NCBI GenBank assembly: GCA_051362555.1
Contig: JBPQGU010000016.1
Coordinates: 2,542,001-2,606,000, forward strand
Reading direction: 5' to 3'
Source of the DNA: Lingula anatina
Taxonomy: Eukaryota; Animalia; Brachiopoda
DNA length: 64,000 nucleotides
The translations under genes were made by a program, and so were the position numbers. Numbering within the stretch: the stretch's first letter is position 1; every line of letters starts with the position of its first letter. Positions 42,601 to 64,000 of the stretch are shown one piece after another. The notes beneath the pieces were generated by a model. The model was not told where the DNA came from. It saw only the letters and a list, made by a program, of their open reading frames with translations, and did no database searches.

Positions 42601-42764
42601 TACAATTTATATCATGGGGAAAGTATGGTCAAGTTTTTATCTCATAAAGACTCATTCTCACCTCTGATGACAACTCCATAACCAGGGTCAGACACACATA
42701 TTTCTGTTCAACACTGTCCCCTGTAGATGGATGAAGACAAATGCTGATGACACAGGGACTAATC
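39602..42764 (-). CDS. RNF25: E3 ubiquitin ligase RNF25 (RWD + RING-H2). Exons 42662-42764, 42332-42399, 42043-42112, 41452-41676, 41022-41231, 39602-40836. 5' exons missing; apparent 1-bp frameshift near 40280
   Basis: Spliced translation LHPSTGDSVEQKYVCLTL..YPDEAPKIMIKNPRGL..MLYELIELAKESLTEGNIPHGQCVICL..CYHYFHCHCL..CPVCR closely matches known RNF25 motifs. Confidence 0.92.
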
Positions 42765-42802
42765 CTGAAATGATATAATTTACAATCAATAACTGCAGTT
42801 AC

Positions 42803-43995
42803 AGAAGATCATTCACTTGTTGGTTGAGAATTAGGTAAATACGATGTAAGATTTTTAATGTTTGAAGAATCATATCGTATGTCTGATTCAATGAGAGCAG
42901 CAGCTGGTGTTATATGTCGTAATCAACAGGTACTTTTTAGAATAAATGTATTAAATAATTGATCATATAAATCAGAATTAATTAAAGATTTAGATGAACA
43001 ATTACCATTTGATGGTTATAAAATGGAAAAAATTTTATTTCAAGTCTTAAAGATTATAAAATAAAGAAATTATGGAAAAAGTTCAAGGTTTTCAATATAA
43101 AGAAATTAAAGATCAAAAAAGAGTTATTTGAAAATTAAATCATATTCATTGTTAAGAGCTAATTTAATTAAAATGGAATATGTTGAAAATTTATGATTTG
43201 AAGCTACACGTGATAAATTAAGAAAAGACACAATTTTATGAGGTAAAACTGGTAACTTAGAAACTGGTATGTTTTCTTTGTATATGAAAAAAATTGTTGA
43301 TATTTCTTTTGAAGACAATATAAAAGATTTTAGAACAAATGAAAATTGAATACATTCACATTTTATGGTAGGTATTGACTTAGGATATACTTTTGATAAA
43401 ACTGTTGCTGTTATTGTAGCTATTTCACAAGATTTTAAAAAATTAGAATATTAGATACAAAAATCATAAAAATAAAAACAACTGTTTTAGATATAGAAAA
43501 ACAAATGCTATCAATTGTTGATTTTGTAAAAAGAAAATTAAAAATTTATGGTTATAATTTTGAAGAATATTGAGTTTCTGCAAATACAGTTCATGCAGTT
43601 CAACTTTCAATTGAAACTAAATTTCAACATATTTTTGGTGAAGAATTATTCTATTTTTACAATTTTAAAAGACCGCTTCCATTACTTGAAAGAACAAATC
43701 TTTTAAAGCAATTAATTTCTAATAATGCTTTGAAATTGTTAAAACACAAACTAATCAAAATTTTAAAATAGAATTAGAAAATTTAACATATGGAAATATA
43801 AACATTCCATGACAAACAAAACGTTTAGGTGAAGATGATATTGTTGAAGCATTTGAAAATGCAATTTTTCCAATGTTTAATCGCATATTTTCAAAAGCAT
43901 TTACACGTTGATATGATTTAGGTCCTACTGATTATTCAGATGCACAATTAAATTTAAAATCAGAATTAGAAAAAATAAAAAAACCCACTAAATAA
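42803..43995 (+). pseudogene. terL: 5'-truncated, frameshifted copy of the terminase large subunit gene
   Basis: Matches 61201-62398 except for five 1-bp homopolymer deletions within the coding part. Confidence 0.8.
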
Positions 43996-44006
43996 GTGGG
44001 TTTTTT
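43977..44006. terminator. Bidirectional intrinsic terminator between convergent operons (second copy 62381-62410)
   Basis: AAAAAACCCACT-AAATA-AGTGGGTTTTTT hairpin flanked by A and T tracts. Confidence 0.8.
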
Positions 44007-44089
44007 AACTATAATTTAATACTATACCAAAAATTTTCAATAAAAATATAATATTAAAAATACTCTTAAATAAATTATATACTATAATT

Positions 44090-44566
44090 TTATGATGGAA
44101 AGAAAAATTCTTCTAAGTTTAAATCTTTTTCAGATAAACCTATTTTTTCAATTTTTTCAATTTTTTCTAAATATTCATCAAATTTTTCAGGAATACCGTT
44201 TCTTGAAATAAAACTATTATATTTTTTTTCGTATTCTATTTCATCTGTTTGTTTAACATCATGAGCTTTTTTTATAAATGGTTTTATCAATGCTGCTAAA
44301 ACTATTTGAACAAATCCAGAAATTACAAACATGATTCAAGCACATTCTTCGCCATCAATTTTAATTTGTGATTTTCATTCATCTTTTGCAGATAAAATTA
44401 TTCCAATTAAAAATAATGCTAATGAACAAAAAGTTAAAAATCAATATAATAATTGAAATATACGTCTTATTCATGTAATTTTTGATCAACAAGTTGCAAT
44501 ATAATTAATTGTTGTATCATCTATTTTTAGATTTAATTTTTTATTGTTTATTTCGTTATTAAACAT
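44090..44566 (-). CDS. 158-aa membrane protein with two predicted TM helices, holin-like position (code 4)
   Basis: AGAAAGG SD before ATG at 44566. Open across TGA codons into the listed 44090..44332 ORF. Hydrophobic segments FLTFCSLALFLIGIIL and IMFVISGFVQIVLAALI. Confidence 0.75.
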
Positions 44567-44643
44567 TATTTGCCTTTCTTTTTTTTATTATAACTTTTTA
44601 TATTTGATATCTATTTTCTCTACTATCACTTTTATGTTGTTTC

Positions 44644-47600
44644 TTAACGTTTTTTTCTTTCATTAACTAATTCTCTTATACCACTTGGACTACCCCTGCT
44701 ACTATCTCTATCTGTGAAAGAACCAATTGCTCTAAACATTTTATCTTTTAAATCTTGGACTTTTTGATGTCAAGTAAGAGATTTATGTAAACTTTGTCCT
44801 CTTGAAGTTAAACCATCAATTCAGGCAGCAATTTTTTCATTTGTATTATAAGTTCTAACTAGATTTTGTATTGTAGCATCATTAAAACTAAAATCATCTC
44901 TAACAACCATATCATCTATCATTTCATTAGCAGATAATATTGTTTCATCTGCTGATATTGGTTCTGGTCCAAAATGGTGAATTAATCTAAATGTTATTCT
45001 TGTTCCATTAGCTGGTTTAATCACTTGTGTATAAGATTTATTTAAATCATAAGTATCAGCTAATGTAGATTTTACAAATACAACTTTTAAAAACTTAATT
45101 AATCTACCCATATGTTCCCAAGAACTTTCTTGATTTTCTCTTACATTAATATTTAATATTGAGTTTGAAGTAGTTATTCCATAATCACCTTTCATTTTAA
45201 TACCTCTTGATGAATATATTTGTCCTGGATAAATTGCTGTTGTTTTTGTACTTAAATATGTTTTTGCTACTGAGCTATTTGTTTCTATTTCTGTTGTAAA
45301 ACATCTTTTTCTATAAGTTCTATCTTGTTGTGTTTTAAAGAAATGTAATAAAGTAAAACAATTTTCAAGTCTTGGTGTAGCAGTAAATGTATATCTAGCG
45401 GTAGGACCTGGTTCAGCATTTAATAAATTAAATGAGTTTCAATTATAACAAGTAAAGGGAACAGTAAATCCTTCTTCCATTCTATTTCATAACATATTAT
45501 CAGTTGCATTTGTATCATTTGTAAATATTAAACCAGCAACAGCTAAAAATTTATCTTCTTGTATTAAATTGTTTTCTGCTTTTGATAATATGAAATCAAA
45601 ATCTACTTTTCAATTAGAGTTATTAATTTTTGAATTATCTTGGAATGTTAGTATTAAAAAATTGTCAGTAGTATGTCATACTGTAATTGCTTCTTTTGTA
45701 TTATTTTCAACTAATTTAGGAATACCTTCACTTCATTCAACAACAAAAGTTGGTTCTTCTCCACCAGCATCACCTTTATCACCTTTATCACCTTTAGGTC
45801 CTGCTGGTCCTGCTGGTCCTATTTGTCTATCAGCTCATCTAACATCTTTAACTTTTATATTATCTTTAAACTTAACATCATTTAAACTAATACCACCACC
45901 CGTTGGCCTTAAATTAGCAATTGTATTTTCAATATTATCAATTTTTTCTTTTAACGGGTCAAACTCATCTGTTTTTATTGTGGTAAGTGCATTTTGAACT
46001 GATGTTCTTGTTCTAGTTATAATATCATCTAATGTTCTTTTATTTATACCATCACTAGGTAATAATGGGTCTCCAACAGAAATTATTCTATTATTTCTTA
46101 ATGATATAGGTTTATGAAAACCTGTATAAGTTCCTGCCAAGAACATATTTTCAGTTCCAGCTACTTTTAATGATGCTTCATTATCACTATTTACTTCAAC
46201 ATCAAAATTACCTCATTTACTATCACCTGCTGGTCCTTGTTCTCCTCTTTGTCCGTGTGCACCTTGTGGTCCTATTGGTCCTCTTGGTCCTGTATCTCCT
46301 TTATCACCTTTAGGTCCTTGTGGTCCTGCTGGTCCTCTTGGTCCTATTCCACTACCGCCACTACTTGGTAAATTAGCAATAGCATTATCTAATTGCCTTT
46401 TGTTTATAGCATCTTTTGGTGCTGTTCCATCAGCAACATCCACTATTTTATTATTTTCTAAATCTAATGTTTTTCCACTAAATAAAAAAAGCTTATTATC
46501 TGTAAATTGTAAATATTTATTAATTAATGGTGATGGTTGTTTTCTTTCTAAAATACCTATATTAACAACTTTTTTACCACCTCTACTAATAAATTGTTTT
46601 ATATATATATCACCAACTTTTGTTCCGCCAGCAAATGTAGCATCACCACCTGAACCTCCACCACTAGGTAAATTATCTAAACGATTTTTATTATCAATAA
46701 TTCCTGCTGTATTAGCATTAACTCTTTCTTTTAATGGATCAAGTTCCTCTGTTTTTATTCTTGTAAGTGTAGTTTGTGTTGCTTCTTGTGTACTAGTTAT
46801 ATTTCTAGTATTTTGTGATACTTGATTTCTTAATGCATTTGTTGCTTGTTCTATATTATCTACATTTTGATTTGTTGTATCTAAATTAGAACTTAATTGA
46901 TTTATTTGAGTTCTAGCTGTTGTAATATTTGACCTGTTATTTCTAATATTTGTTGCATTTTCAAAAGTTTTGTTTTCTGTAAGTGTAATGTGTCCTGTTA
47001 AACTATCTACATCATCTCTAAGGTCTTTATTAATCTCGTATTGATTAGGTCCACCCTCTTCTTGATTATTAGTAGCTAATAATTCATTTGTTTTACTTGC
47101 ACCACCAACACTACTACCTGTTCCTGGATCACCTTTGTCACCTTTAGGTCCTCTAGCGTTTTCTTTTATAAAATTTTTAAAATCATTAGAACTTAAAAGC
47201 TTTGAAACCAATACACCAGCTGTTGCTGGATATTGATCAATAAATAAATCAAGAAAAGTAGCTCTTACAGCTTTAAAAAATTTATCATCATATTCTAATT
47301 GAATTTCTCTTTTTTTAATAACTTGATTTAAAAAAAAAATTGAAACTTGTTCTAGTTCAGAAATTACTGGAACAGAGTATTCAAACTTTAAAAATTGATT
47401 AACATCATTAACAGATATTGGGATTACTGAATAATTTTTATTAGTTCCAAAAGAATCATTTCCTTTTTCAAAAATAAATTTAATTAGTAAACAAATTGCA
47501 TTTCTTAGATGTAATTTGTCATTATTAGATAATGAATTTCATTTAGATTCTTCAGATAATTGATAATCATTTAAATCCCTGTTGATTTTCATCACAGCAA

Positions 47601-47802
47601 TTGTAAAATATTCTTGCAAGTATTCATTTGTAACATCTTTAATTGTTGGATCTAAAAATGTTAAATGAAGTTCTTTTGTAAAATATTGATAAACATCATT
47701 ATTATTCCTAATTTGTGGATTAGGAATTTTTTGTCCTGGATTTTTAGGATCATCAATTTCAAGTACTAAATTTTTATAATTTTTAAAAATATATTCAAAC
47801 AT
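44644..47802 (-). CDS. 1052-aa virion fibre protein with collagen repeats and coiled coils; possible head-tail adaptor-like N-terminus (code 4)
   Basis: Listed ORFs starting 47802, 47211, 46146 and 45195 are all in one frame, separated only by TGA. The first TAA is at 44644-44646. Gly-X-Y tracts and [14 protein letters not shown] / [14 protein letters not shown] fibre-neck-like motifs are present. Confidence 0.82.
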
Positions 47803-47826
47803 AATTGATATTTAAAAAAATTAAAA

Positions 47827-48906
47827 TTATGTATATTGAAAAGGTCTTCTTGTTCCAATTTTAATTCTTTTAATAAATTTTAAAGCTACTTGACCACTTG
47901 CTGAAACAAATTTGTCCCCTGATATCGGATCATGTGTATCAGGATCTGTATCTGTTCAAACTTCTTGAAAACCAACCACAGTTGTTGCAGAATTTATATA
48001 TTTTCCATCATTTTTAACTAAAATTACAGCATGAATATCTGAAAAATCAAATGATTCAGTATCATGTAAAATTCCAGCTGGATAATTGTTACCAAGTAAA
48101 TTATCTTCATAAATTGTAATTCCATTAACTTTTACAGCGGCTCTATTTTCTAGAATTTGTTGTACACTATGACCAAATCTACCTAAAGCAAATGTTATTT
48201 TTAAAAATGTAATTGGTGAAACAAATATTATGATTTTTTCTTTTTCAATTCCATCAGTAAATTGATCTATTAAATTTGTTATAGATAATGTTTGTTTTAA
48301 TAAATCATTTAATATTTTTCCATTTTCATCTGAATGTGGATATGTGGTATCATTAGAACTATCAAAATTAAATGATGGATTATATTGATTAATATTTCCA
48401 GCAGCAGGTGTTGTTTTAGCTAATAATTTTCAAGATGTCTTTGAAGCCGTTGGAACTTCTCACTCTTTTGAATTTGCAGTATCAATTACTGTTTTAAAAA
48501 ATCTTGCAGCAATTAATTTAGTTTTTTGAGCAGCTAAACTTGACATTACAACTCCTCTTAAATCCCCTGTTTTAGTGAACAATGCTGCATCTGCTGAATC
48601 TGTTGTGAATACAACTTTATCGTAATTTTCCATGAAAATATTTACATCTTCAGTTTTTAATTTTTGTCTTTCTGTAGTTGAACCAACAGTTTTATATTGC
48701 AATTTATATGCAATCTTTTTTTGTACTGTTGCTCCTTTGTTAACTTCTTCAATTTGAATAAAACCTGCATGAAATAAACCTGATACTTTATTTAAAATAC
48801 GTGAAATGTCTTCATACATTAATGTACCAGCTATTTTATTACCTTGTCCATCTTCAATAGATAAAGTTCTAGCTAATTTTTGTGTAGTTGTTGAAATACT
48901 TGCCAT
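47827..48906 (-). CDS. 359-aa putative major capsid protein (code 4)
   Basis: Open across three TGA to TAA at 47827. Size and position directly after a scaffold-like gene fit. IIIFVSP..KVNGITIYEDN resembles HK97-fold A-domain motifs. Confidence 0.7.
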
Positions 48907-48908
48907 TG

Positions 48909-49355
48909 TTAATTATTTTCTCCTTGATCAAAAACAACTCTTGGTTGTTTTTTTGGTGTTTTATCAATTTTAATTTGTTTTTCTTTAGAAAATGATGGAA
49001 TTGAACTTTCCATTGTTTCTTCTTTTTCTGTTTCAATTTTATTATTTTTTAATGGTTTTTCATTAAAAAATGAAGATAAATTTAAATCATTTATATCTAA
49101 ACCAGCTGATTTTGCTTTATCTATTTTTTGAATGTATTCATTAAATTTATCTTTTTTACCACCATCTAAAATAAATTTATTTTTTTTAAATTCTAATTTT
49201 TCATTTTGAAATGTTTTTTTTTGAAATTCAAAATCTTTTTTTTCTTTTTTTAATTTTTCTATTGTTTCTTTTGTTTCTTCTTGAAGTTTTTTAAATTCTT
49301 CTTTTTCTTTTAAAAAGTTTAAATATTCATTTGTTTTGTTAAAATCATTTTCCAT
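48909..49355 (-). CDS. 148-aa charged coiled-coil protein, putative capsid scaffold
   Basis: K/E-rich helical protein immediately upstream of the putative MCP. Confidence 0.6.
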   Translation of the reverse strand: MENDFNKTNEYLNFLKEKEEFKKLQEETKETIEKLKKEKKDFEFQKKTFQNEKLEFKKNKFILDGGKKDKFNEYIQKIDKAKSAGLDINDLNLSSFFNEKPLKNNKIETEKEETMESSIPSFSKEKQIKIDKTPKKQPRVVFDQGENN

Positions 49356-50254
49356 AATATAATAATGTAATAATAAAAGAGAGGAAAAAGCATTCCATGT
49401 TTAATGTAATATATTTAAGTATAATAAATCAAAAAAAATTATTTTTTAAAAACAACAAACAAAAAATGCTTTTTTTTATTAAAAACAGTAAACAAAAAAC
49501 AAACACAAAACAAGTCCTACCTATCTTACGTAAGCTGTCCGCCTACTGCTTAATTTAATTATATATTAATTTAATTTATTTTTATTTTTTTTATAATTTA
49601 AGTTAATAATTTTTTTTAAAGCTTTTTTAGAAGTGTTGGGAAGTTATTATTATTATAAAAAAAATATAGCTTTCCCACTACTATTACCAGAATAGTATAT
49701 ATATACATATATATTAAGAAATATATAATATATAGAAAAATATGTCAAAAATCAATTTATTATAAAAAATTTATATTGTTAAATTTTTTTATATATCGCT
49801 ATTCTGTATAATGAGCAGCGGGTTTTGCCAACTTTTTTATAATAATTAAATTTATTATATTATTTAAATTAAATAATTACAAGAAAAAATATTCTAATTT
49901 AATACTATACCAAAAACAACCAATAGCAAGTCCTTGCAAATTTATATACAAAAAAAAGCAGACATTTCTGCCTGCTAATGTTGTGTAAGTAACAAAAATT
50001 TTTTAAAAAAAACAAATCCAATAGTTTTAAAAAAAAATTTATTTAATTCTAGTTTTAACAATACAACTAGCAAGTCCTTACTATCTTATTATCTATCAAA
50101 AACAAAAAATAAAAATATTTATAAAAAATATTTTAAATAAATAATAAATATATATTATAATAAAAATATTAAATAAATAATATTAAATATATAATAAAAA
50201 TATTAAATAAATAATATTATTTATTATAATAATAAAAATATAGAAAGGAAAAAT
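49356..50254. promoter_or_regulatory. Extremely AT-rich divergent control region (promoters, possible origin)
   Basis: A 900-bp non-coding gap lies between divergent operons. CAAGTCCT motif x3 (49511, 49927, 50071), imperfect hairpin 49633-49681, AT direct repeats 50150-50240. Confidence 0.6.
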
Positions 50255-50407
50255 ATGAAAGTAACAATAACAGCCAGAGTTGAACATGACTTATGAAAAA
50301 AAATTCAAAAGTTATGTTTTAAAAAAGGAATTACATTTTCAAGTTTTGTAAATGATTCAATAAAAATGCATTTTGAAAATGAAAAATTAATTAGTAAAAA
50401 AAATTAA
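50255..50407 (+). CDS. 50-aa ribbon-helix-helix (CopG/Arc-like) regulator
   Basis: Strong SD. MKVTITARVEHDLWKKIQKLCFKKGITFSSFVNDSIKMHF follows the RHH pattern. Confidence 0.7.
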
Positions 50408-50432
50408 ATAAAAAAAGAAAGAAAACACAAAA

Positions 50433-50606
50433 ATGGAATATTATAAAAATCAAAAAATAGTTAAAAAATATTTGAATTGTTTTGAATTAGAAAATGGTGA
50501 AATTATTAAATGTAATAATGGAATATGTTTAATATGTAAAAACATTAACTATTTTATGGATGATAAAAAAATAGTTAGTTGTAATTGTTTTAAAAATCAA
50601 AAATAG
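50433..50606 (+). CDS. 57-aa Cys-rich protein
   Basis: MEYYKNQ..KCNNGICLICK..SCNCFKNQK. Confidence 0.6.
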   Translation: MEYYKNQKIVKKYLNCFELENGEIIKCNNGICLICKNINYFMDDKKIVSCNCFKNQK

Positions 50607-50621
50607 AAAGGAAAAAAACAA

Positions 50622-50741
50622 ATGACATATTGTAAAAATTGTGAAAAAAATGTAGATGCTTACCACATTCAATGTGAGTGTATGTATCCATCTTGTAAAT
50701 ATAATATTTGCACTGAATGTAAAAAAATAATTGTTGATTAA
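50622..50741 (+). CDS. 39-aa Cys-rich Zn-finger-like microprotein
   Basis: SD AGAAAGGA. MTYCKNCEKNVDAYHIQCECMYPSCKYNICTECKKIIVD. Confidence 0.65.
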   Translation: MTYCKNCEKNVDAYHIQCECMYPSCKYNICTECKKIIVD

Positions 50742-50777
50742 GAAATAAAAACTGAAAGGAAAAAAAAATAAAAAATA

Positions 50778-50981
50778 ATGAATTTATTAGATCTAGAAAA
50801 AATAAGAGTTTGCAGAGTTTGTAAAATTAGAGAAAGTAATCAAAATTTAAAAAAAATAATTGTTTCTAATGTTTGAAGAATGAAAAACAGTTATTTATAT
50901 GATGAATGATTTGTATGTAGAAAATGTTTAAGAATAAAATTTAAAAAAGATAATTTACAAAGTTATTCATATTTAAAATAG
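50778..50981 (+). CDS. 67-aa protein with two CxxC motifs (code 4)
   Basis: CRVC..CRKC, open across two TGA. Confidence 0.65.
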
Positions 50982-50994
50982 AAAGGAATAAATA

Positions 50995-51321
50995 ATGGAA
51001 TTGAAATATAGAGCTTGTTGTGAATGTTTTGAAGTTATAAGTTCAGGAAAGTATTATTTAACAGCTGAAAGTTTTGGAAGATATACAAGATGTTTTAAAT
51101 GTCATTATAAAAAGAATAGGATAAAAAAAATGAAAATTGAAGAAAAAATGAAATGTTATAGTTGCTTAAAAATGTTTAATTCTAAAGAACTTAAACATAT
51201 TTATGTTAATGAATGACCAAATCAATTAGATAATGCATATGTTTGTACTGCATGTTTTAAAAGCAATATTAAAAAAGATTTTATAGTATATGAAAAGATT
51301 AAATGAAAGGATATTAAATAA
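50995..51321 (+). CDS. 108-aa protein with four CxxC motifs (code 4)
   Basis: CCEC, CFKC, CYSC, CTAC. The fourth motif appears only after TGA read-through. Confidence 0.7.
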
Positions 51322-51440
51322 TGGGAAAAGTAAACTTAGTAATAGAAATATTAAAAGAGTTAAAAAAAATAAATAAAAATTTACAAGAAATAAATGATAC
51401 TTTAATGACTGGGTTGGACGTTATAGATGTAACAGATTAA
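51321..51440 (+). CDS. 39-aa coiled-coil microprotein
   Basis: TAATG coupling. MGKVNLVIEILKELKKINKNLQEINDTLMTGLDVIDVTD. Confidence 0.5.
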   Translation: MGKVNLVIEILKELKKINKNLQEINDTLMTGLDVIDVTD

Positions 51441-51462
51441 ATAGATTAAGGAGTGTATAAAT

Positions 51463-51816
51463 ATGAAAATAATAAAAACAAAAGAATTTAAACTAACAAA
51501 AGAAGAAATTAAAGAATTTGAAAAAGATCAAAAAAAATATGATAGACATTATTATTTTAAATGTTTAGGATGTAACAAAAGATACAACAATTTAAGAAAC
51601 GATACAATTCAAAGCCAATATTGTTCTTTGGTTTGTAAAATAGAATATTTTGACAAAAATGAAAAGTTGTCAAAAGAAAACCCTAAAGCATGAAAAAAGA
51701 AATTAGGTCTTAAAGATCTAGATGAAAGATTTTGAAATTTAAAACAAAAACACCAACAAAAACTAGATAAAACAATAGAAAAATTAAAAAAAGATACAGA
51801 AGGGAATAAAAATTAA
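51463..51816 (+). CDS. 117-aa protein with CxxC..YCSxxC treble-clef-like motif (code 4)
   Basis: SD AAGGAG. CLGC..YCSLVC. Confidence 0.65.
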
Positions 51817-52072
51817 AGCTATAAATGAAATAACAAAACTTAATTTAGATTGTAATTGTTATCCATGTTTTAGAGTAAAAAAAGGTGATATATCTTGTCA
51901 AGAAACTGCAAAATTTTTAATAATAGATAAAGAAAATAAATTTAATCAAAAGTTTTTATGTACAACATGTTTAAAAGAAAGAATTGATGATTTAGAATTT
52001 AAAAAAAATAAATTAGATGATGAAATTACACTTTTTAAAAATATGTTAAAGGAATTCAAAGAAAAAAAATAA
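51806..52072 (+). CDS. ~88-aa Cys-rich protein, start codon uncertain (ATA/ATT)
   Basis: Open frame with CNCYPC..C..CTTC, ending in a TAATG overlap. SD-like AGAAGGGA upstream but no ATG. Confidence 0.45.
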   Translation: MKIKAINEITKLNLDCNCYPCFRVKKGDISCQETAKFLIIDKENKFNQKFLCTTCLKERIDDLEFKKNKLDDEITLFKNMLKEFKEKK

Positions 52073-52491
52073 TGGAAAATATAAAAATAATTAAAAATTT
52101 AATATGTAAAAATTGTAAAAAAAAAGATTATCAATTTAATGGACAAAAAGTTTATATGAATAAAAGAACTAATGAAATTTTATGTTCATCATGTTTTGCA
52201 AAAAGACATATTGGTAAAGATCAAGTTGATATTGTTCAACTTAAATTTCCAGATGCAATTCAAAGAATTATAGACTTAGAAAAAAAACTTGAATTTTTAA
52301 AAGGTAAAAATTTTTTAATTAATAAAATGTTGAAATTTATTGCATTAAAACCAAGTTATACTTCAGAAGAAATAACTAAAGAATTATTAAAAACTTCATT
52401 TGGAATTAATGAAGAAATTATACAAACAGAAAAAGAAATAGAAACAAAAGTAAATGAAGATATCAAAAATAGGGAGATATTAAATGATTAA
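52072..52491 (+). CDS. 139-aa protein with two CxxC motifs and a coiled coil
   Basis: CKNC..CSSC. Confidence 0.7.
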   Translation: MENIKIIKNLICKNCKKKDYQFNGQKVYMNKRTNEILCSSCFAKRHIGKDQVDIVQLKFPDAIQRIIDLEKKLEFLKGKNFLINKMLKFIALKPSYTSEEITKELLKTSFGINEEIIQTEKEIETKVNEDIKNREILND

Positions 52492-52657
52492 AACAAATAC
52501 TATTAAATATTGTATGAATTGTAACCGTTTAACTATTTGATCTATTCTTAAAGATATAAATATAAAAAAAATTGGAAAAAAAGATTTGTTCTATTGTGAT
52601 TTTTGTTTTGGTGATAAAAAAGGAGTAGATATAAGAAATTATTCTTGAATGAAATAA
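52484..52657 (+). CDS. 57-aa Zn-ribbon-like protein (code 4)
   Basis: SD AGGGAG. YCMNC..YCDFC. Confidence 0.65.
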
Positions 52658-52830
52658 TGAATTATAAATCAATACTATATGCTTTAGAAAAATGTAATGA
52701 ATGTGAAGATCCACGTTCAAATTTAAAATGTGAATATGGATGTGGTTGATGTTTCCTCCATTGCATTGGACATTATACAAAAGATGGAAAAATTGTTTTT
52801 TCTAAAAAATATCAAAAAAATATAAAATAA
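52657..52830 (+). CDS. 57-aa Cys/His-rich protein (code 4)
   Basis: TAATG coupling. CNEC..CEYGCGWCFLHC..H. Confidence 0.6.
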
Positions 52831-53104
52831 AAATATCGGGGTTGGTTGATTGTTTTTATTGTATTATTATTTCATTTCTCATAATTACATTTTCCAACCC
52901 CAAAATAAAAATATAAAATAAAAAATAAATATGGTAAGTTTTTATTTCTTACCACTAAATACCATTCATACCGCAACCATTGTTAAAATAATGTATTATC
53001 TTATTCTTTTTATTTCTTGGTTGCGGTTGTTTTTTAAATAAAAAAAATAATATTAAAATATAAAAAAAATATTATAATAAAAATTATAGAAAGGAAAAGA
53101 AAAA

Positions 53105-53641
53105 ATGAAAATTGAATTTAAAAAAGAAGAAGAAAAATCAGATAATGAAATATTAAATAATATGAAAAAATATTCAAAAAAAGAATTGATTGATTATTTT
53201 GAAAAATTAATTTTTATGAAATCTTTATTAGAAGATGAAAAAGATAAAGTAAATGAATATAGAGAAAATGCTTTAGAATGTTTAGAAAGAATTATAAATA
53301 AAGCATCAAGATTAGCTAAATTTTTTGAAAAAGAAATTTCAGAAAGAAAAGATGAATTAGAAATTAAATATGGTAAAAAATTAGCAGATTTTTTAAATAA
53401 ATATCATTTTTATCAAAATGGAGATGATCACTTTCATGTTTGTAATGATAATGATGATGGTGGTATTTTTAATATATATATTACTGATAAAAAAGAATAT
53501 AACAAATATAATTTTTACAATAAAGTTATAGAACCAAGTTGAGGTCAATTTTGTTATTATAGTTTTGGTTCAAACAATTTAGATGAATTTATTGAAAAAT
53601 TTAATAATATGTTAAAAGAAATTAAAGATAGAAAGGAATAA
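53105..53641 (+). CDS. 178-aa hypothetical protein (code 4)
   Basis: Strong SD. The listed ORF extends through TGA at 53540 to TAA at 53639-53641. Confidence 0.7.
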
Positions 53642-53643
53642 AT

Positions 53644-53823
53644 ATGAATAAAGAATATGAAGCTTTAAAGTATAGAAAAAAAACAGTAACTACAATTATA
53701 GATTATGCTGTTTTTTTAGAAGCTAAAAGATTATCTTTTGAACAAGAAATAACTTTTTCAGAATTTGTAAATAGAGCATTAAAGGAGTATTTAAAAATTC
53801 AAAATGAAAAATGAAAAAGATAA
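53644..53823 (+). CDS. 59-aa ribbon-helix-helix regulator
   Basis: KKTVTTIIDYAVFLEAKRLSFEQEITFSEFVNRALKEYL, similar to the 50255 protein (ITFSxFVN). Confidence 0.7.
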
Positions 53824-54007
53824 AGAAGCAAAATTTAATTTAGTAGAAGAAACATGACAAGAACTAACTAAAAAAATGTTTCCAAAACATAAAATGAAAA
53901 AAATGCTTTCAGAAGAATTTAAAGAACTTTTAAAAGAGTTTTTAAAAAAAGAAGGTTATATAAAAAAAACCGATTTGTTAGATTTTATAAAGAAAGGAAA
54001 AGAATAA
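53804..54007 (+). CDS. 67-aa RHH-like protein (code 4)
   Basis: SD AAGGAG. AKFNLVEETWQELTKK..LSEEFKELLKEFLKKE. Confidence 0.5.
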
Positions 54008-54010
54008 AAA

Positions 54011-55732
54011 ATGATTGATACAAATAAAAATAAATTAAATTTAAAAGAAATAGGAATAGTAACAATAGCTACAACTTCTTTAGTTGTTGGTGCTGTAGCT
54101 TTAGGAATGATTGCAAATCAACCTAAAACAGTTGTTGAAAGTAAAATTTCAAAAGAAAAAGAAGATAAACTTTTAAAACTTTTAGAAAAAAAAGATTTAA
54201 CTATTGATGAAATTAAAAAAATAGTTAATAAAGCTGTTTTAGATGCTTTAAAAAATGTTAAAACAGGTAAAGATGGTTTACCAGGACCACAAGGACCTAA
54301 AGGTGATAAAGGTGAACCCGGAATTAAAGGTAAATCTTTTGATAATTCAGAATTAGAAGCAATTAAAAGTACTTTAGATAATTTAGAACAAAAAATAAAA
54401 GAATATGGTGATTCTATTTATGATTTAAAAAATAATCCAAAATTTAAAGGTTTACCAGGACCGCAAGGTCCTAAAGGTGAAAAAGGTGACAAAGGCGAAA
54501 AAGGTGATACTGGACCAGAAGGACCACATGGACCACCCGGACCAAGAGGTGAAAGAGGTGAACCAGGACAAAGAGGAGAAAGAGGTTTACCAGGACCACA
54601 AGGACCAGCAGGTAAAGATGCGCCAGTTCCTACAGTTGAAACATTAAGACCATTAGTAAATGAAGTTATATCAAGATTATGAAGTGAACAAAATAAAAGA
54701 TTACAAGAAGTAAATAATGATTTAGCATCTGCTAGTCGTAGCTTACAATTAAGATACAATGAATTAAATACAAAATATCAAGAATTATATAGTGATTATT
54801 TAAGTAAAGTTGGTGAAGATGGTGAATTAACTTCAAAAATAGAAGAATTTAAAAATAAAGTAGATGAAACTAAAAGATTAATAGATTCTTCAATTGAAAG
54901 AATTGGTACAGAAAAACAAGCTATTGATGATCAAATAAATGCTTTAAAAGAAAAAGTTAAAAAAGTAATTGAAAATCCAAAAGATTTTGTTTGAGAACAT
55001 TTAGAAGATAATATTCAAGAATTGATAAATAATCTTGAAGCACCACAAGGTGAACCAGGACCAGGTCCAACTAAAGAACAAATTGCAGAAGCTGTTGATG
55101 CTTGATTTTTAAAACATCCAGCACTTTCAGGACCTAAAGGTGAACCAGGTGATAGAGGACCACAAGGACCAAGAGGTTTTGCAGGAGAAAGCGGAAAAGA
55201 TGTAACACCTAAACAAATAATAGATGCATTTACAGCCTTTATAAATTCTAATGCCTTTAGAAATTCTATAAGAGAAAAAGTTAGAAATTATGGTAATGAA
55301 GAATTAGAAACTTTAAGAACAGAATTACAAGGTATTAAAAATTCAATAATACCATTAATTGGAAGACAAACTACACCTGATGAATTAAACAGAGATATAG
55401 CATTTGAAAATGAATTACTTAAAAAATCATTATCTGGTAATTTAGGAATAACTGATGAAACAAAAGATGAATTATTAGAATTTGCAAAAATATTTAAAAA
55501 TGAAATTTATAAAGTAACACCTCGTTCACTTTTAAATAATGGAGTAACAACAAAAACATGAATATTTGGTAATTTTAGAATAACTATTTTTTCTAATAAA
55601 AAAACACTTGTTCAACTTGAAAATATGAATTATTCAGATACAACAAAATGAATTAGAATGCATGTTAATATGGTAGGTAATGGTTGAGATTTAACACCAC
55701 TTGAAAATAATGATAATGTAGATGAAAAATAA
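54011..55732 (+). CDS. 573-aa N-terminally membrane-anchored collagen-like / coiled-coil surface protein (code 4)
   Basis: Hydrophobic IGIVTIATTSLVVGAVALGMIA segment and several Gly-X-Y tracts. Open across TGA to TAA at 55730. Confidence 0.82.
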
Positions 55733-55764
55733 AGCGATTGAGAAGTAAATAGAAAGGAATAAAT

Positions 55765-55799
55765 AAAAAAAACGGATGATAAAATATCATCCGTTTTTT
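55765..55799. terminator. Bidirectional intrinsic terminator
   Basis: AAAAAACGGATGATA-AAA-TATCATCCGTTTTTT. Confidence 0.85.
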
Positions 55800-55982
55800 G
55801 TTATAATGTTATATGATCTTGATCTATTAAATTTATTAATAGACTTTTTCTTTTTTTTATTTTTTTGTTTAAAGATGTTTTCATGATATTCCTTTCTTTT
55901 GCAAAAAAATAATTACCTCTATTTTTATTTAAAAAATAGAGGTATTTTCTTCAAAAACAAACCAAAACGCGCATTTCACACA

Positions 55983-56036
55983 TTACTATAGACTATATAA
56001 TATTATATATATATAATATTATATAGTCTATAGTAA
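55983..56036. repeat. Perfect 54-bp palindrome
   Basis: TTACTATAGACTATATAATATTATATA|TATATAATATTATATAGTCTATAGTAA. The arms are exact reverse complements with no loop. Confidence 0.95.
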
Positions 56037-56116
56037 AATATATAAATGAAATGTATATATTTTATGAAAAAATCCAAAAATTCAAAATTTCAAAACAGGG
56101 GGGTATAATTTTTAAT

Positions 56117-57448
56117 ATGGCAAATAAACAACCAATTGAATACAAAAAATTCATTGATATAGGTAAAATCATATCAATTGTATTTACAAATTTAGAATTT
56201 GGACGTGGTATATATTTTGAAACTGAAGATAAAGAATTAAATAAATTATGATTAACTTTAAATAAAAAAAATAATATTAATGGTATTGTTTGAAGATTGC
56301 TTTATGAAAAAAATAAATATGGAAATCAAGTTTTAAAGTTTGATTTAATTAATTCAAAAGAAAAAGATATAAGATTAATCATTCCTAATTTTAATAATTT
56401 AAGAATTACAAATGCATATGAAACTGACATGATTCTTATGGAAATAGAAAATCATCCAATAACAGTTTCAGGTCAAGTTACACTTGATTATTTGATTAGA
56501 GAAAATTGAAATAAAGAAACATATAGATTGACATTTTTTTATCAAAATAAACAATTAACATTTGCAGAATTTTTAACAAAAATTCCTGATGAATATCAAA
56601 AAGAAAAAGTACAATCATTATTTAATATTAAAGAATACAAATTAAATAAATCAAATATTAATTATGAAAGAAAAAATCCATTTAATGACATTCCAGCTGT
56701 TCTTTTTTCAACACCAACACAAAAAAAATTATTAGAAAATGAAGAATCTTTTTCTGATCTACTTGATAGATTATTTAATGAAATGATTAATGATGTTGTT
56801 TATTCAAGACCATTTACAAATTTCATTACAAATAATAAAAACTTACCAAATTATTTTAAAAAATATGGTGTTCAACCACCAATCAATTTTTCAACAAATA
56901 CAGTATCAAGAGACGATAAATCAATAACTATAGCTCCAAAAGAAAGATTATCTGTTTTAACTGCTGCTATTGAAAAAACAATTTCTTTTGCTTTTAATCA
57001 AGCAAATACTTCTTATATTAAACAATTAGCATCTGTACCATCAAATTCAAATGATTTAGCAAATTCAGCTGGTTCTAGAAATTCAGACATTGCAAGATTT
57101 AAAACAAATTATTTATTAAAATTATTTTTTAAAAAAATATTTAAAATCTTTAAATTAGATAATAAAAAATTTAAAATATATCTTTTAGAAGCTGATCAAA
57201 GTAAAGAATTACAAATTAAAAATATAGCTGAACAAGTAGCTATGAATTTAATTTCAAAAGAACAAGCTAAAAAACAATTAAATGTTGAAGAAAATACAAC
57301 AGAATCTGAAATTGCTAAAGAAAATAAAAAACAAATTGAAACAGATATAGCTTCTTCAATATCAGAACAAAAAATAAAACCTGAACAAGCAAAACCTGAA
57401 CAAGCAAAAACAAAAGAAGAAACAAAAGATAATGTCAGCTCAAATTAA
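56117..57448 (+). CDS. 443-aa putative portal protein (code 4)
   Basis: Three listed ORFs join in frame across TGA. Size, an N-terminal DKELNKLW..NNIN..LLYEKNKYGNQVLKF pattern and a C-terminal LISKEQAKKQL helix resemble SPP1/A118-type portals. Confidence 0.65.
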
Positions 57449-60400
57449 GTTTTATATAAAAAGAAGTAGAAGAACTCCATTTTTTAAATTAAATTCAAAT
57501 ACAGATACATTTTTTTTCCCATTCTATGTACAAGATGAATTTGATTCAAAATTTACATACAATAAAATAAATTTTGAACGTGTATATTCTGGAAATAAAA
57601 CAACAACTTTAAAATTGATAGATTGAGAACAACAAATGGTTCCTTATGATTTAACAACAAATTCTGAAATACCTTTTGAAAATATAGATAAAAACAGTGT
57701 TTTTAAACGAAAATTTAACATAGGAACGTTTTTTATAGGTAAAGTTCTTTCTTTAAAAATTAGAAATCAATTTACAAAAAAATATGGTTTTATTCATCAA
57801 AAATTAATAAAATCTACTTCAGTTTATTTTAATTCTGAAGATAAATCTTTAGCTTCATTTATTTGAGATGAAAAAAATCAATCAATTAAAGAAGAAAATA
57901 TATATTTATTTTTTATGGCACCTGAAATTGCAGGAGATGATATTTTAAAACCAGTAAATGTTAATATTCAATTAGATTTATATGGAAGATTTATTTGTGC
58001 AATTGTAGATTTTACATCAGTTACTGAAGAATTTAAAGAAAAAGGCAAAAATATTGATGCAGCCATTCAATTTGGAGCTCCGGGTGAAATACCAATTTTA
58101 CCTACTGTTAAACCAACATTAATTTATAATCCTAATGTTCCAAAAAATTTAACAAAAAACAATATATTATTTTTTGAACCTGAAAAACAAATAACATTTA
58201 AAAATGAAAATAATGAAGATATAACATTAAATTTGTATCTACAAACACAAGGGACAAAACAAGCTTATATTGATGTTCGTTATTTTGAAAGAATTAAACC
58301 AATTAAAAATATTCAATTAAAAATTAAAGGTGAAGTTGGATTTGGTGGTATTAAAATTATTGGAAGAAAAATAATAAAAAATACTAAAAATGAAATAATT
58401 TATGGAAGGCCACAAAATTTATTTGTTCATAAATTACATGAACCAATTTTTAATGTCTTTGATAAAACAAAAAATTTTAATAATAATTTTATAATAATTT
58501 CTAATTTACAACCTATACGACAAATTTGAACAGATGTTCAAAGATTGGAAAGTTTTTATTCCAATATAAATCCTGATGTTAAAAGATCATCACAAATGAT
58601 TTTAAAAATAGATACAAGTTATGATAATATTATTCCTAAAAATGAAAAAAATGAAATATTAAATACATTTCCAATATCAAATTCAGATGAAAAATTTCCT
58701 TTAACTTCAAGAAATAAACTAATTGGAAAAAATACTATTGCATATTCAAAATACTCTGATTTTAAACTAAAACGTAATGATATAGTATCAAATAATAAAT
58801 TGATTGTTTATGATAATGATTTTATTAATATTTCTAAAATTTCACCTGAAGAATTTATAAATTTCAATCCATTTTTAATTGATAACATCCAATATTTACA
58901 AATTGGACAAACATTGCTTTCAAATAACAAAGGTGAAGCACAAGCAGCAGTTAATACATCAATAGGACTTGGATCAGATTTTATTTTTAAATTATCAAAA
59001 AAAATATTTGCATTTATAAAACCAAGTGCAATAGTTTCAACGTTTTTTCAATGGAGTCCTCATTCTTGATTTGTAGGAAAAAAAATATTAAAATTAAGTT
59101 CAAAAATCAATTTATTATTTTCACGTGAAATCATGGATTTTTTTGCTGCTGAACTTCCAAAAGGTAGAATATCAACTGATTTTTATATTCCACTTGATTT
59201 TTTTTTAACTGGATTTAGAAATCAATTTTCAAGATTTTTAGCAACAGAAGATATTAACAAATTTTTTAATATGGAATTAACAAATAGAGCTTTTTTAAAA
59301 AAGAAAAATAGTTCTAATATTGAATTGGTTGATACAGAAACTTTAAGAAAAGGAACATATTTTATTACTAAAATTCCATTTAAAACTGCAGAAGCTGATG
59401 AAGAAGGATTTTTAATAGATGCAATTGAAGTAACTGTTTTAGGACAAAGAATTTTAGAATTTTCTTTTTTTGATTCTAGCGGTGAACTTTCAAATTATTT
59501 TAGAATCAAAACACAATCTTTATATGCTTTTAATATTTCAGAAATTAAAAATACTATTCAACTTTCAAAATTAAATGAAAATTTTTCATCAAAAGAAGAA
59601 TTTATAGATACTGTATTAAATCAAAATAGAAAAGAAGCTGTTCAATTAGGATACTATATAGATGAAATTGAACAAAATATTAAAAATTTAGCTACAAGAC
59701 AAGAAAAATTAAATTATTTAAATTCATTAATAAATTCATTTACATTTCCTGAAATAGAATATTCAACTTCAATTTTACATGATAGAACAAAACAAAATTA
59801 TGTTAGAAACATAAACAAAAGATTTATTAAAGAAGTTGATTTTTCTAATGGTTGAAATTTTATAAAAAAACATATTAGATATATAGGTCAAGAATTTACA
59901 TTATTTGAAAATATTGGAGAAGCTAGAGATTGAATACTTAATAAATTTAAACTTAAATTAACAACTAAAACAAAAATAGATTTAGAAGTTAATACTGAAA
60001 ATTATTTAACTATACAACAAAAAGATTTTGATGAAAATCCAGAAGTAACTAGAATAGTACATGGAAGAGGTACACCGCCAGGTGGAAGAAAAGTAACTGT
60101 TGTTGAAGCTCCAGAGCTTAAATTAACTGATACAACTTCTGTTTCAGTTTCATATTTAGATGAAATACCTAAATCTAAATGAGTAAGAACAAGTCCATTT
60201 AAACAAATAAAAGAAAATTGAAATTATCCGCAAGAATTATCAAAATTAAAAAATTATTCTGATTTAAATAACATAACAAGTAATTTCCATTTACGTTTCG
60301 AATTTGAAGGAGATGATATTTTAATTAAAAGAACTTTTAATTTATGAAAATATTACTCTCCAAATGTATTTCATAGCCCTTATTCATGATCAAACTTTGA

Positions 60401-60653
60401 AGGTAATGGTCAAGAAATAGTTTTACAAAACGGAGATGAAACTTCACAATATAGAGATTTATTTTTAAATACATTTGACATTTATATTGAAAATTTAGAT
60501 GTTACATTAAATGTTAACACTGGTAAATTTGAAATATCATTTTTAATTAAAAGAATAAATTATGTACATTCTAGAGGATATAAAATTGATACAACAAAAA
60601 GAATGTATCATGAATTTTATATAAATTTTAAAATGGAAATGTTAAAAAAATAA
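57432..60653 (+). CDS. 1073-aa putative tail/structural protein (code 4)
   Basis: Listed ORFs at 57432, 57636, 57915, 58545 and 59133 share one frame, broken only by TGA. It ends in a TAATG overlap with terL. Function is inferred from position. Confidence 0.7.
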
Positions 60654-62398
60654 TGAATAAAGACTATTTAAAAAATTATTCTTTACAAAAAAAAACAAAA
60701 AATTTTGATTTTGAATCAGAATGAAAAAAATGATTATTTTTTATTGATACTCAAAATTTAATTTTTTTTCCAAAACTTAGAAGAACATTTCCAGAACTAT
60801 TTAAAAAACCAACAGGTAGATTAAAAAAAGAAATTAAAAGATTACCTAAAAGTTGAGAAAATAGACCTGATTTTACACGTGAAGATATGTATGGTTCAAG
60901 AGCAAACGGAAAAACATTTAATTGAATACTTTATCAATGATATTTAAGAGATTTGTTTGCTTCTTTAACTTTTTGTTTTGTATGGACTAGAGTAAGGTTG
61001 AAAGAATGTTATGAAGTTTTTCGAACAATTCAAATGTTAGGTCCATTAGATTTTAAAAAAAGATTAAAACAAAAAGGTTATAGCAATAATCATCATCAAA
61101 TAAATAAAATTCATATTTCAAAAGATGAATTAATTATTGAATATGGCAAAAGTACTTTTAGAGTTATAAATTTAATTGGTAGAACAGATTCAGTACATCA
61201 AGAAGATCATTCACTTGTTGGTTGAGAATTAGGTAAATACGATGTAAGATTTTTAATGTTTGAAGAATCATATCGTATGTCTGATTCAATGAGAGCAGCA
61301 GCTGGTGTTATATGTCGTAATCAACAGGTACTTTTTAGAATAAATGTATTAAATAATTGATCATATAAATCAGAATTAATTAAAGATTTAGATGAACAAT
61401 TACCATTTGATGGTTATAAAATGGGAAAAAATTTTATTTCAAGTCTTAAAGATTATAAAAATAAAGAAATTATGGAAAAAGTTCAAGGTTTTCAATATAA
61501 AGAAATTAAAGATCAAAAAAGAGTTATTTGAAAATTAAATCATATTCCATTGTTAAGAGCTAATTTAATTAAAATGGAATATGTTGAAAATTTATGATTT
61601 GAAGCTACACGTGATAAATTAAGAAAAGACACAATTTTATGAGGTAAAACTGGTAACTTAGAAACTGGTATGTTTTCTTTGTATATGAAAAAAATTGTTG
61701 ATATTTCTTTTGAAGACAATATAAAAGATTTTAGAACAAATGAAAATTGAATACATTCACATTTTATGGTAGGTATTGACTTAGGATATACTTTTGATAA
61801 AACTGTTGCTGTTATTGTAGCTATTTCACAAGATTTTAAAAAAATTAGAATATTAGATACAAAAATCATAAAAATAAAAACAACTGTTTTAGATATAGAA
61901 AAACAAATGCTATCAATTGTTGATTTTGTAAAAAGAAAATTAAAAATTTATGGTTATAATTTTGAAGAATATTGAGTTTCTGCAAATACAGTTCATGCAG
62001 TTCAACTTTCAATTGAAACTAAATTTCAACATATTTTTGGTGAAGAATTATTCTATTTTTACAATTTTAAAAGACCGCTTCCATTACTTGAAAGAACAAA
62101 TCTTTTAAAGCAATTAATTTCTAATAATGCTTTTGAAATTGTTAAAACACAAACTAATCAAAATTTTAAAATAGAATTAGAAAATTTAACATATGGAAAT
62201 ATAAACATTCCATGACAAACAAAACGTTTAGGTGAAGATGATATTGTTGAAGCATTTGAAAATGCAATTTTTCCAATGTTTAATCGCATATTTTCAAAAG
62301 CATTTACACGTTGATATGATTTAGGTCCTACTGATTATTCAGATGCACAATTAAATTTAAAATCAGAATTAGAAAAAATAAAAAAACCCACTAAATAA
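60653..62398 (+). CDS. terL: 581-aa terminase large subunit (code 4)
   Basis: Walker A GSRANGKT, Walker B FLMFEES, RNase-H-like nuclease VGIDLGY and terminal EDDIVEA. I count 14 in-frame TGA against a single TGG. Confidence 0.88.
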
Positions 62399-62493
62399 GT
62401 GGGTTTTTTTAACTATAATTTAATACTATACCAAAAATTTTCAATAAAAATATAATATTAAAAATACTCTTAAATAAATTATATACTATAATT

Positions 62494-62970
62494 TTATGAT
62501 GGAAAGAAAAATTCTTCTAAGTTTAAATCTTTTTCAGATAAACCTATTTTTTCAATTTTTTCAATTTTTTCTAAATATTCATCAAATTTTTCAGGAATAC
62601 CGTTTCTTGAAATAAAACTATTATATTTTTTTTCGTATTCTATTTCATCTGTTTGTTTAACATCATGAGCTTTTTTTATAAATGGTTTTATCAATGCTGC
62701 TAAAACTATTTGAACAAATCCAGAAATTACAAACATGATTCAAGCACATTCTTCGCCATCAATTTTAATTTGTGATTTTCATTCATCTTTTGCAGATAAA
62801 ATTATTCCAATTAAAAATAATGCTAATGAACAAAAAGTTAAAAATCAATATAATAATTGAAATATACGTCTTATTCATGTAATTTTTGATCAACAAGTTG
62901 CAATATAATTAATTGTTGTATCATCTATTTTTAGATTTAATTTTTTATTGTTTATTTCGTTATTAAACAT
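62494..62970 (-). CDS. Second copy of the 158-aa two-TM protein
   Basis: Identical to 44090-44566. Confidence 0.75.
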
Positions 62971-63047
62971 TATTTGCCTTTCTTTTTTTTATTATAACTT
63001 TTTATATTTGATATCTATTTTCTCTACTATCACTTTTATGTTGTTTC

Positions 63048-64000
63048 TTAACGTTTTTTTCTTTCATTAACTAATTCTCTTATACCACTTGGACTACCCC
63101 TGCTACTATCTCTATCTGTGAAAGAACCAATTGCTCTAAACATTTTATCTTTTAAATCTTGGACTTTTTGATGTCAAGTAAGAGATTTATGTAAACTTTG
63201 TCCTCTTGAAGTTAAACCATCAATTCAGGCAGCAATTTTTTCATTTGTATTATAAGTTCTAACTAGATTTTGTATTGTAGCATCATTAAAACTAAAATCA
63301 TCTCTAACAACCATATCATCTATCATTTCATTAGCAGATAATATTGTTTCATCTGCTGATATTGGTTCTGGTCCAAAATGGTGAATTAATCTAAATGTTA
63401 TTCTTGTTCCATTAGCTGGTTTAATCACTTGTGTATAAGATTTATTTAAATCATAAGTATCAGCTAATGTAGATTTTACAAATACAACTTTTAAAAACTT
63501 AATTAATCTACCCATATGTTCCCAAGAACTTTCTTGATTTTCTCTTACATTAATATTTAATATTGAGTTTGAAGTAGTTATTCCATAATCACCTTTCATT
63601 TTAATACCTCTTGATGAATATATTTGTCCTGGATAAATTGCTGTTGTTTTTGTACTTAAATATGTTTTTGCTACTGAGCTATTTGTTTCTATTTCTGTTG
63701 TAAAACATCTTTTTCTATAAGTTCTATCTTGTTGTGTTTTAAAGAAATGTAATAAAGTAAAACAATTTTCAAGTCTTGGTGTAGCAGTAAATGTATATCT
63801 AGCGGTAGGACCTGGTTCAGCATTTAATAAATTAAATGAGTTTCAATTATAACAAGTAAAGGGAACAGTAAATCCTTCTTCCATTCTATTTCATAACATA
63901 TTATCAGTTGCATTTGTATCATTTGTAAATATTAAACCAGCAACAGCTAAAAATTTATCTTCTTGTATTAAATTGTTTTCTGCTTTTGATAATATGAAAT
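63048..64000 (-). CDS. Second copy of the collagen fibre gene, C-terminal part only
   Basis: Identical to 44644-45596. Confidence 0.75.

Follow-up and report, generated by a model that had tools for sequence, protein, structure and literature searches.

A tailed-phage map in a Lingula anatina contig

We analysed a 64,000-nucleotide stretch of the Lingula anatina (Brachiopoda) assembly GCA_051362555.1 (contig JBPQGU010000016.1, positions 2,542,001 to 2,606,000 of the forward strand), called here the window and numbered from its first letter. From 42803 to 64000 it consists of one 18,404-bp map of a phage using genetic code 4, followed by a repeat of at least 2.8 kb. Sequence searches confirmed that this 18.4-kb phage has no detectable replication, recombination or integration enzyme, as a preliminary description made from the letters alone had proposed.

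The two copies of the repeat, 42803-45596 and 61201-64000, are 99.8% identical over 2,800 bp. Six one-base gaps lie in the first, and a short-read contig of sequencing run X2 fills all five of those that it spans, hence a true unit length of 18,404 bp. The repeat could reflect terminal redundancy, a concatemer or an over-assembled circle; as regards a circularly permuted, terminally redundant genome of ~19 kb, what was found is an 18.4-kb unit with its repeat on one molecule, ending at the window edge. GC content of the unit is 23%, and TGA is read as Trp (64 in-frame TGA versus three TGG across 22 genes, none of which terminates with TGA). Consistent with the earlier claim that nearly all coding space is accounted for, the 22 genes cover 16,533 of 18,404 bp (89.8%), the largest gaps being 899, 384 and 274 bp. 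The unit is likely a complete tailed-phage genome whose host is likely among the Mollicutes. Its open reading frames (ORFs; lengths in amino acids, aa) and other features are as follows.

42802/42803, junction of eukaryote-like DNA with mid-terL, seen from read contigs; likely an assembly chimera
42803-61200, full phage map, code 4 (18,404 bp once the six gaps are corrected)
44090-44566, minus strand, 158-aa membrane protein, putatively holin-like (PHROGs membrane protein, E = 0.058; placed as the membrane genes of relatives)
44644-47802, minus strand, 1052-aa collagen/YadA-stalk fibre (tail fibre, E = 2e-18)
47827-48906, minus strand, major capsid protein, 359 aa (E = 1.3e-7; E = 4.8e-7 to the family holding the Spiroplasma poulsonii NSRO capsid)
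48909-49355, minus strand, 148-aa charged protein, putative scaffold from position and size
49356-50254, 899-bp intergenic region between divergent gene blocks, candidate origin from sequence features
50255-50407, plus strand, Arc/CopG-like ribbon-helix-helix (RHH) protein, 50 aa (PHROGs, E = 1.9e-5)
50433-52830, plus strand, ten small ORFs of 39-139 aa, nine Cys-rich with CxxC, seven of them with paired CxxC
51812-52072, plus strand, 86-aa Cys ORF with ATT start, among the ten
52072-52491, plus strand, 139-aa ORF, among the ten
52831-53104, 274-bp intergenic region with three hairpins (z -4.4)
53105-53641, plus strand, 178-aa orphan, the largest early ORF (predicted helical N-half and beta-rich C-half; H101-x4-G-x2-H109-x-H111)
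53644-53823, plus strand, second Arc-like RHH protein, 59 aa (PHROGs, E = 3e-5)
53804-54007, plus strand, 67-aa orphan without family
54011-55732, plus strand, 573-aa collagen-repeat protein with hydrophobic N-terminal segment (Pfam/PHROGs)
55733-56116, 384-bp intergenic region with terminator-like hairpins at 55767-55799 and 55914-55944, plus a perfect palindrome of 54 bp
56117-57448, plus strand, portal, 443 aa, frame open from 56051 (family profile, E = 0.005, weak; synteny with tail gene)
57432-60653, plus strand, 1073-aa beta-rich tail protein (family profile, E = 4.8e-7; fold matches), non-enzymatic in the modelled part
60653-62398, plus strand, terminase large subunit (TerL), 581 aa, Walker A at residues 81-88
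61201-64000, repeat of the first 2.8 kb of the unit (99.8% identity), ending at the window edge
62379-62411, bidirectional terminator at the meeting point of the two convergent gene blocks

Replication, recombination and integration genes

At E < 0.001, no replication, recombination or integration family was found in Pfam (26 ORFs), PHROGs (26 ORFs) or NCBIfam (23 proteins or parts of proteins), and a strict Walker A motif is present in one of the 22 proteins, TerL; the preliminary description had likewise seen this motif in TerL only, and no polymerase, primase, helicase, Rep or recombinase motif. Absence at this level is by itself a weak argument, because PHROGs also gave no terminase family for the TerL of the window and no family for its capsid, and we therefore used relatives of the phage as a control. 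In these, PHROGs recovered eight of ten genes for integrase, RecT/Bet, ERF, single-stranded DNA-binding protein (SSB), RuvC and exonuclease, the two failures being a RuvC and an exonuclease; it also recovered all three TerL and none of nine capsid, portal and tail proteins. Among 62 proteins of relatives PHROGs found no primase, helicase or initiator family; its one 'DNA polymerase' match there fell on a collagen repeat. Fifteen recombination-region proteins of relatives compared with 355 six-frame stretches of the unit gave nothing at E < 0.01.

The longest stop-free stretch in any of the six frames of 49356-54010 is 183 codons. A polymerase, a replicative helicase, a typical primase, an integrase or RecT would not fit into frames of this size, although an SSB, a resolvase, a loader or a minimal nickase would. 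Most of the weight of the argument rests on this size limit together with the identification of the large ORFs. The largest possible hiding place for an enzyme, the 1073-aa protein, was folded with 30 sequences to a mean predicted local distance difference test (pLDDT) value of 41, with 328 residues at 50 or above and residues 763-1073 at low confidence; the top named Foldseek matches of the model are mostly tail, tube and baseplate proteins. A search with TerL returned eight representatives, seven of them terminase-like (best identity 38%), while P0006 is a YD-repeat protein and was dropped. The 1052-aa fibre's N-terminal portion is possibly a head-tail adaptor, judging by synteny. Neither the capsid nor the TerL alignment nor the 178-aa ORF had a match in word-based protein searches.

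No small terminase (TerS) is recognisable: a nine-sequence TerS profile run on the six-frame stretches of the unit scored best, at E = 0.058, on the 158-aa membrane protein, and the gene directly upstream of terL, in the order portal-tail-terL, is the tail gene and not TerS. The preliminary description is silent on this point, as it is on the join to the flanking DNA, which the reads do not support.

Junction with flanking DNA and occurrence in sequencing runs

In all four runs in which 41800-44100 was examined, contigs of the flanking DNA run past 42803 with different letters, and phage contigs in X2 and X7 extend upstream with the phage's own sequence of 61183-61200. Moreover, the junction lies inside terL and is therefore likely an assembly chimera; true insertion into a eukaryote genome is not supported by the read contigs of these four runs. 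Runs X1 and X3 lack a phage contig at 42803-44100 despite the presence of 47000-56000, and such a gap carries no weight. The finding also flags a likely phage-host chimera within a eukaryote assembly.

The phage was found in seven of nine listed runs (four samples, three studies, one organism label) and recurs as free-standing contigs in two runs; two runs with the same label contain almost none of its words. Its presence in seven of nine runs under one label makes it likely a virus infecting a bacterial associate of the sampled organism. A DNA search for the bacterial host matched 378 of 398 genomes, but the matches listed are short A/T- or collagen-type stretches.

It seems very improbable that the map represents a variant made incomplete or defective by loss of its recombination module, or that the assembly dropped this module. 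Read-type errors do occur in the first copy, no single contig spanning the unit was seen and the read contigs examined cover the junction region only, but 47000-56000, which includes the whole early region, has word shares of 0.98, 0.83 and 0.75 in three runs from two studies (X1 possibly being the source), and the early genes are intact and tightly coupled.

We find it hardly credible that the unit is one segment of a multipartite genome or an element like a gene transfer agent (GTA), as the preliminary description had allowed. Virion genes do stand without replication genes, and a GTA scenario was raised for the phages of S. poulsonii NSRO (10.1101/2021.12.09.471767). Against this, head, tail, packaging and regulatory genes are all present and require no second segment for the virion, the early region is phage-like, the unit's own map is repeated, free-standing contigs occur and there is no bacterial flank at the one place examined, the 42803 junction.

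As to the flank itself, eukaryote-like DNA with microsatellites continues up to 42802. Run X3 differs from it by ~4% at 41800-42803 (41 differences in ~1,000 bases), pointing to a polymorphic host; window positions 1 to ~22 kb hold ~59 near-identical copies of a 362-bp tandem repeat with strong strand skew, resembling a satellite; and 39602-40938 carries two overlapping long minus-strand frames of a low-complexity, eukaryote-like protein with a frame change between them.

The early region and its orphan proteins

The unit has seven frames with paired CxxC, and 14 loci from relatives have 0-2 each. The 86-aa Cys ORF starts with an ATT that overlaps the preceding stop, has a purine-rich site resembling a ribosome-binding site and is overlooked by ATG-only calling. 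For the 139-aa ORF, protein-atlas matches were only to unnamed viral clusters (0.84). Neither it nor the 178-aa ORF matched plasmids in tblastn, and protein and phage-record searches gave no homologue of the latter. Folded from its single sequence, the 178-aa protein reached a pLDDT of 40 with generic helical matches only, residues 100-178 being barely covered by the fold searches.

Identification of the 178-aa protein as Spx/ArsC was considered because one Spx, selected out of 398 genomes, matched it at 29% across 94 aa. A seven-sequence Spx profile scored 7.8 bits, reached by 3/500 and 0/500 shuffles; the lead was dropped when the score fell to 4.7 bits with a 19-sequence profile, a value that 21 and 17 of 1000 shuffles reached and several unrelated ORFs exceeded, with an hhalign probability of 0.2%.

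A tentative alternative to full reliance on the host is that the phage does encode a small initiator or helicase recruiter that escaped recognition, likeliest the 178-aa ORF or one of the Cys proteins, with the host supplying the rest; this is possible, if on balance doubtful. On this view the 178-aa protein would possibly be a HUH nickase of minimal size, with the 54-bp palindrome or the hairpins of 52831-53104 as its substrate. Its H101-x4-G-x2-H109-x-H111 resembles the spacing of HUH motif II, contains the sole H-hydrophobic-H of the 22 proteins and lies on a predicted beta-hairpin. The gene sits between the structured region 52831-53104 and an RHH gene. Mollicute plasmids, moreover, have initiators without recognisable homology, such as CDSB of Mycoplasma pMyBK1 (PMC3541243) and the replication protein of the S. 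citri pSci plasmids (PMC2386487). On the other hand, the pMyBK1 initiator has 272 aa, more than any early ORF of the phage, and belongs to a plasmid; the 178-aa ORF has no YxxK after the motif, no Pfam HUH family even at E <= 10 (C-terminal 94 aa) and only PDB sequence matches at E >= 0.57; and its N-half is predicted to be helical, with no significant match in fold searches.

Non-coding elements and a candidate origin

In the 899-bp region between the divergent gene blocks, the GC-skew minimum (50103) is followed by a 139-bp pure A/T run (50104-50242), CAAGTCCT occurs three times and the minus strand is structured at 49900-50100 (z -3.2). No DnaA box with up to one mismatch was found in the phage's intergenic DNA, this region included. 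AATACTATACCAAAAA is shared by 49900-49916, in the candidate origin, and 62421-62437, just beyond the convergent terminator.

The perfect 54-bp palindrome (55983-56036), which precedes the portal gene, compares with a longest palindrome of 24 bp in 30 shuffles and carries mirror-image TAGACT-17-TATAAT promoter-like sites. The minus-strand site faces the two terminator-like hairpins, so that a short antisense RNA is possible. An exact copy of the palindrome was not found in the viral_contigs set. A hairpin telomere like that of N15 was considered and rejected, as no ORF remains for a protelomerase.

Relatives among Mollicutes phages and prophages

Profiles of TerL and the tail protein match 33 and 32, respectively, of 398 Mycoplasmatales genomes, and many Mycoplasmatales genomes carry several copies of this phage family. 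Family profiles built from Mycoplasmatales loci and the Spiroplasma phages NSRO-P1/P2 matched the window at E = 1.5e-12 for TerL (a partly circular value, since the loci were found with the TerL profile), 4.8e-7 for the 1073-aa protein, 4.8e-7 for the capsid and 0.005 for the portal. In a tree made by a quick method, in which long branches meet, six metagenomic proteins are the neighbours of the window TerL (support 96), and the genome-linked groups stand apart. No close relative with gene context was found in viral_contigs, metagenome_contigs, genome_contigs or phage records.

Mycoplasmatales prophages (G065, G266, G288, G381, G021, G032) share the virion families of the window phage; that of G065 has an integrase, a Bet-like annealase and RuvC, and that of G288 an exonuclease and ERF, none of which is detectable in the window phage. 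Where early regions are in view, PHROGs finds neither a polymerase nor a primase nor an initiator in relatives, which keep RecT/ERF, mostly with RuvC. Dependence on the host would thus be shared in the lineage, since the relatives' early genes that were tested have no polymerase, primase, helicase or initiator family. A near-identical prophage of the family is present in two small genomes (L040/L027 in G065 and L041/L028 in G266), and further divergent members lie on short contigs (L043 and L044 in G381, L023 in G021, L042 in G288).

A co-infecting or resident sibling phage or prophage might supply RecT/ERF, SSB, RuvC and TerS, which we regard as improbable. Typical satellites do not encode their own capsid, portal, tail and TerL, and the window phage encodes all of these; TerS, being highly divergent, may be among the orphans. 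A helper did not come into view either, although the sequencing runs could not be searched for one. In its favour, relatives carry all four functions and many genomes hold several family copies, no TerS is recognisable in the window phage and NSRO carries two such phages (10.1101/2021.12.09.471767).

A proposed mode of replication

Our preferred reading, on which our confidence is evenly balanced, is that the host replisome would copy the phage, starting at a transcription-activated origin within the 899-bp region. We favour it because no family matched while PHROGs detects eight of ten such genes in relatives, because the early frames do not exceed 183 codons and the 1073-aa ORF resembles tail or baseplate domains, and because the layout of the 899-bp region matches the protein-free origins described for Ceduovirus (PMC7150918). 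Virions would carry headful-packaged, terminally redundant DNA, as in the NSRO-P phages, which host RecA would circularise via the repeat in place of the relatives' RecT/ERF. Host RNA polymerase transcribing into the A/T-rich 50104-50242 may then open the origin, where host helicase, primase and polymerase III would load, and the two RHH and small Cys proteins may tune transcription, copy number or host functions. As there is no integrase, its life cycle would be lytic or it would be maintained as a circle. The preliminary description had listed recruitment of the host replisome among possible lifestyles, each unusual; this recruitment is retained here as the best reading, and the mode is less unusual than implied, relatives and Ceduovirus being comparable.

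Several observations weigh against this reading. Below the threshold stand a PHROGs 'DNA primase' match (E = 0.047) that covers 59 residues of the portal, an HNH family on a 117-aa Cys protein (E = 0.004), an RHH-type 'replication regulatory protein RepA' on the 50-aa RHH protein (E = 0.052) and a RecN coiled coil on the 178-aa ORF (E = 0.048). The control set is less divergent than the phage itself: PHROGs found TerL there in three of three cases and missed the phage's own. The closest relatives (P0001-P0005) are known from TerL proteins alone, without gene context. Structure prediction, which the preliminary description had suggested for every ORF, covered only the 178-aa protein among the early ORFs, with a pLDDT of 40, and within this scope it revealed no fold of an initiator, primase, helicase or recombinase. 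The pMyBK1 initiator had no known homology, and the 218-aa nuclease of NSRO-P1 is annotated 'helicase/nuclease' in its record. In 49356-50254, a candidate origin from its sequence features, the GC skew switches where transcription changes direction and is hence confounded by it, and CAAGTCCT is marginal window-wide (four matches in the window; 7/100 shuffles reach four). Promoter-like sites are at chance level (140 versus 154 in shuffles), and Rfam gave no match.

A bolder proposal, which we consider unlikely, is an uncharted minimal lineage of Mollicutes tailed phages that would have shed all DNA-handling enzymes but TerL, TerS and annealase included; its origin would act purely in cis (either the 899-bp region or the palindrome with its mirror promoters), and an array of tiny zinc-finger proteins would help by recruiting the host's helicase, primase or RNA polymerase or by redirecting them. 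A tailed phage without helicase, integrase, recombination protein or initiator, in a host whose replisome is minimal, would set the lower limit to tailed-phage gene needs, and a protein-free origin of 899 bp could yield a new small Mollicutes vector.

Comparison with known systems

The literature searched, with incomplete coverage, gave no description of this lineage or of tailed phages without replication genes. Mollicutes phages have been reviewed (PMC13375369), a different phage of 33.6 kb has been described (PMC11004492) and duplodnaviruses without almost all replication genes are already known (PMC11348598). In a survey of double-stranded DNA viruses, helicases occur in 75%, those without frequently have integrases, recombination proteins or initiators, and the available text names only three archaeal viruses without a typical replication protein (PMC4889955).

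The nearest named phages are S. poulsonii NSRO-P1/P2 and MSRO-P1 (SpV3-type; OL689226, OL689227), which like the window phage use code 4 and measure ~19 kb, and whose reads are consistent with headful packaging and circular permutation (10.1101/2021.12.09.471767). NSRO-P phages and the window phage have homologous TerL, portal (weak), ~1070-aa tail protein and capsid families and share a scaffold-capsid-adaptor-membrane block, with no polymerase, primase, initiator or integrase annotated in the former. Phages of the SpV3/NSRO-P type form short-tailed particles that infect Spiroplasma. In contrast, NSRO-P phages encode TerS, RecT or ERF, RuvC and an insertion sequence transposase, and NSRO-P1 also SSB and a RecB-like nuclease, none of them detectable in the window phage. 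Gene order is TerL-portal-tail in NSRO-P versus portal-tail-TerL in the window, the window TerL falls in a separate long-branched group from the NSRO-P-type TerL, and NSRO-P-type loci (L022, L035) have no paired-CxxC frames, whereas nine small Cys proteins fill the window's early region. Because the TerS and RecT/ERF-RuvC module was looked for and not found, the window phage is, by sequence comparison, distantly related to the NSRO-P group and falls outside its strict membership.

For the proposed origin, the counterpart is Lactococcus Ceduovirus (c2, bIL67), from whose origins plasmids can replicate with no phage protein present (PMC7150918). Their position, in the non-coding gap between divergent blocks, is matched by the 899-bp region; as to the structured non-coding transcript of the Ceduovirus type, the window shows promoter-like sites at chance level and the minus-strand structure mentioned above. 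Ceduovirus are unrelated siphoviruses of another host and encode an ERF-like recombinase, and the window phage differs in having late genes on both strands. Altogether, the window phage is likely a more stripped-down version of a known strategy, a real and unusually reduced variant.

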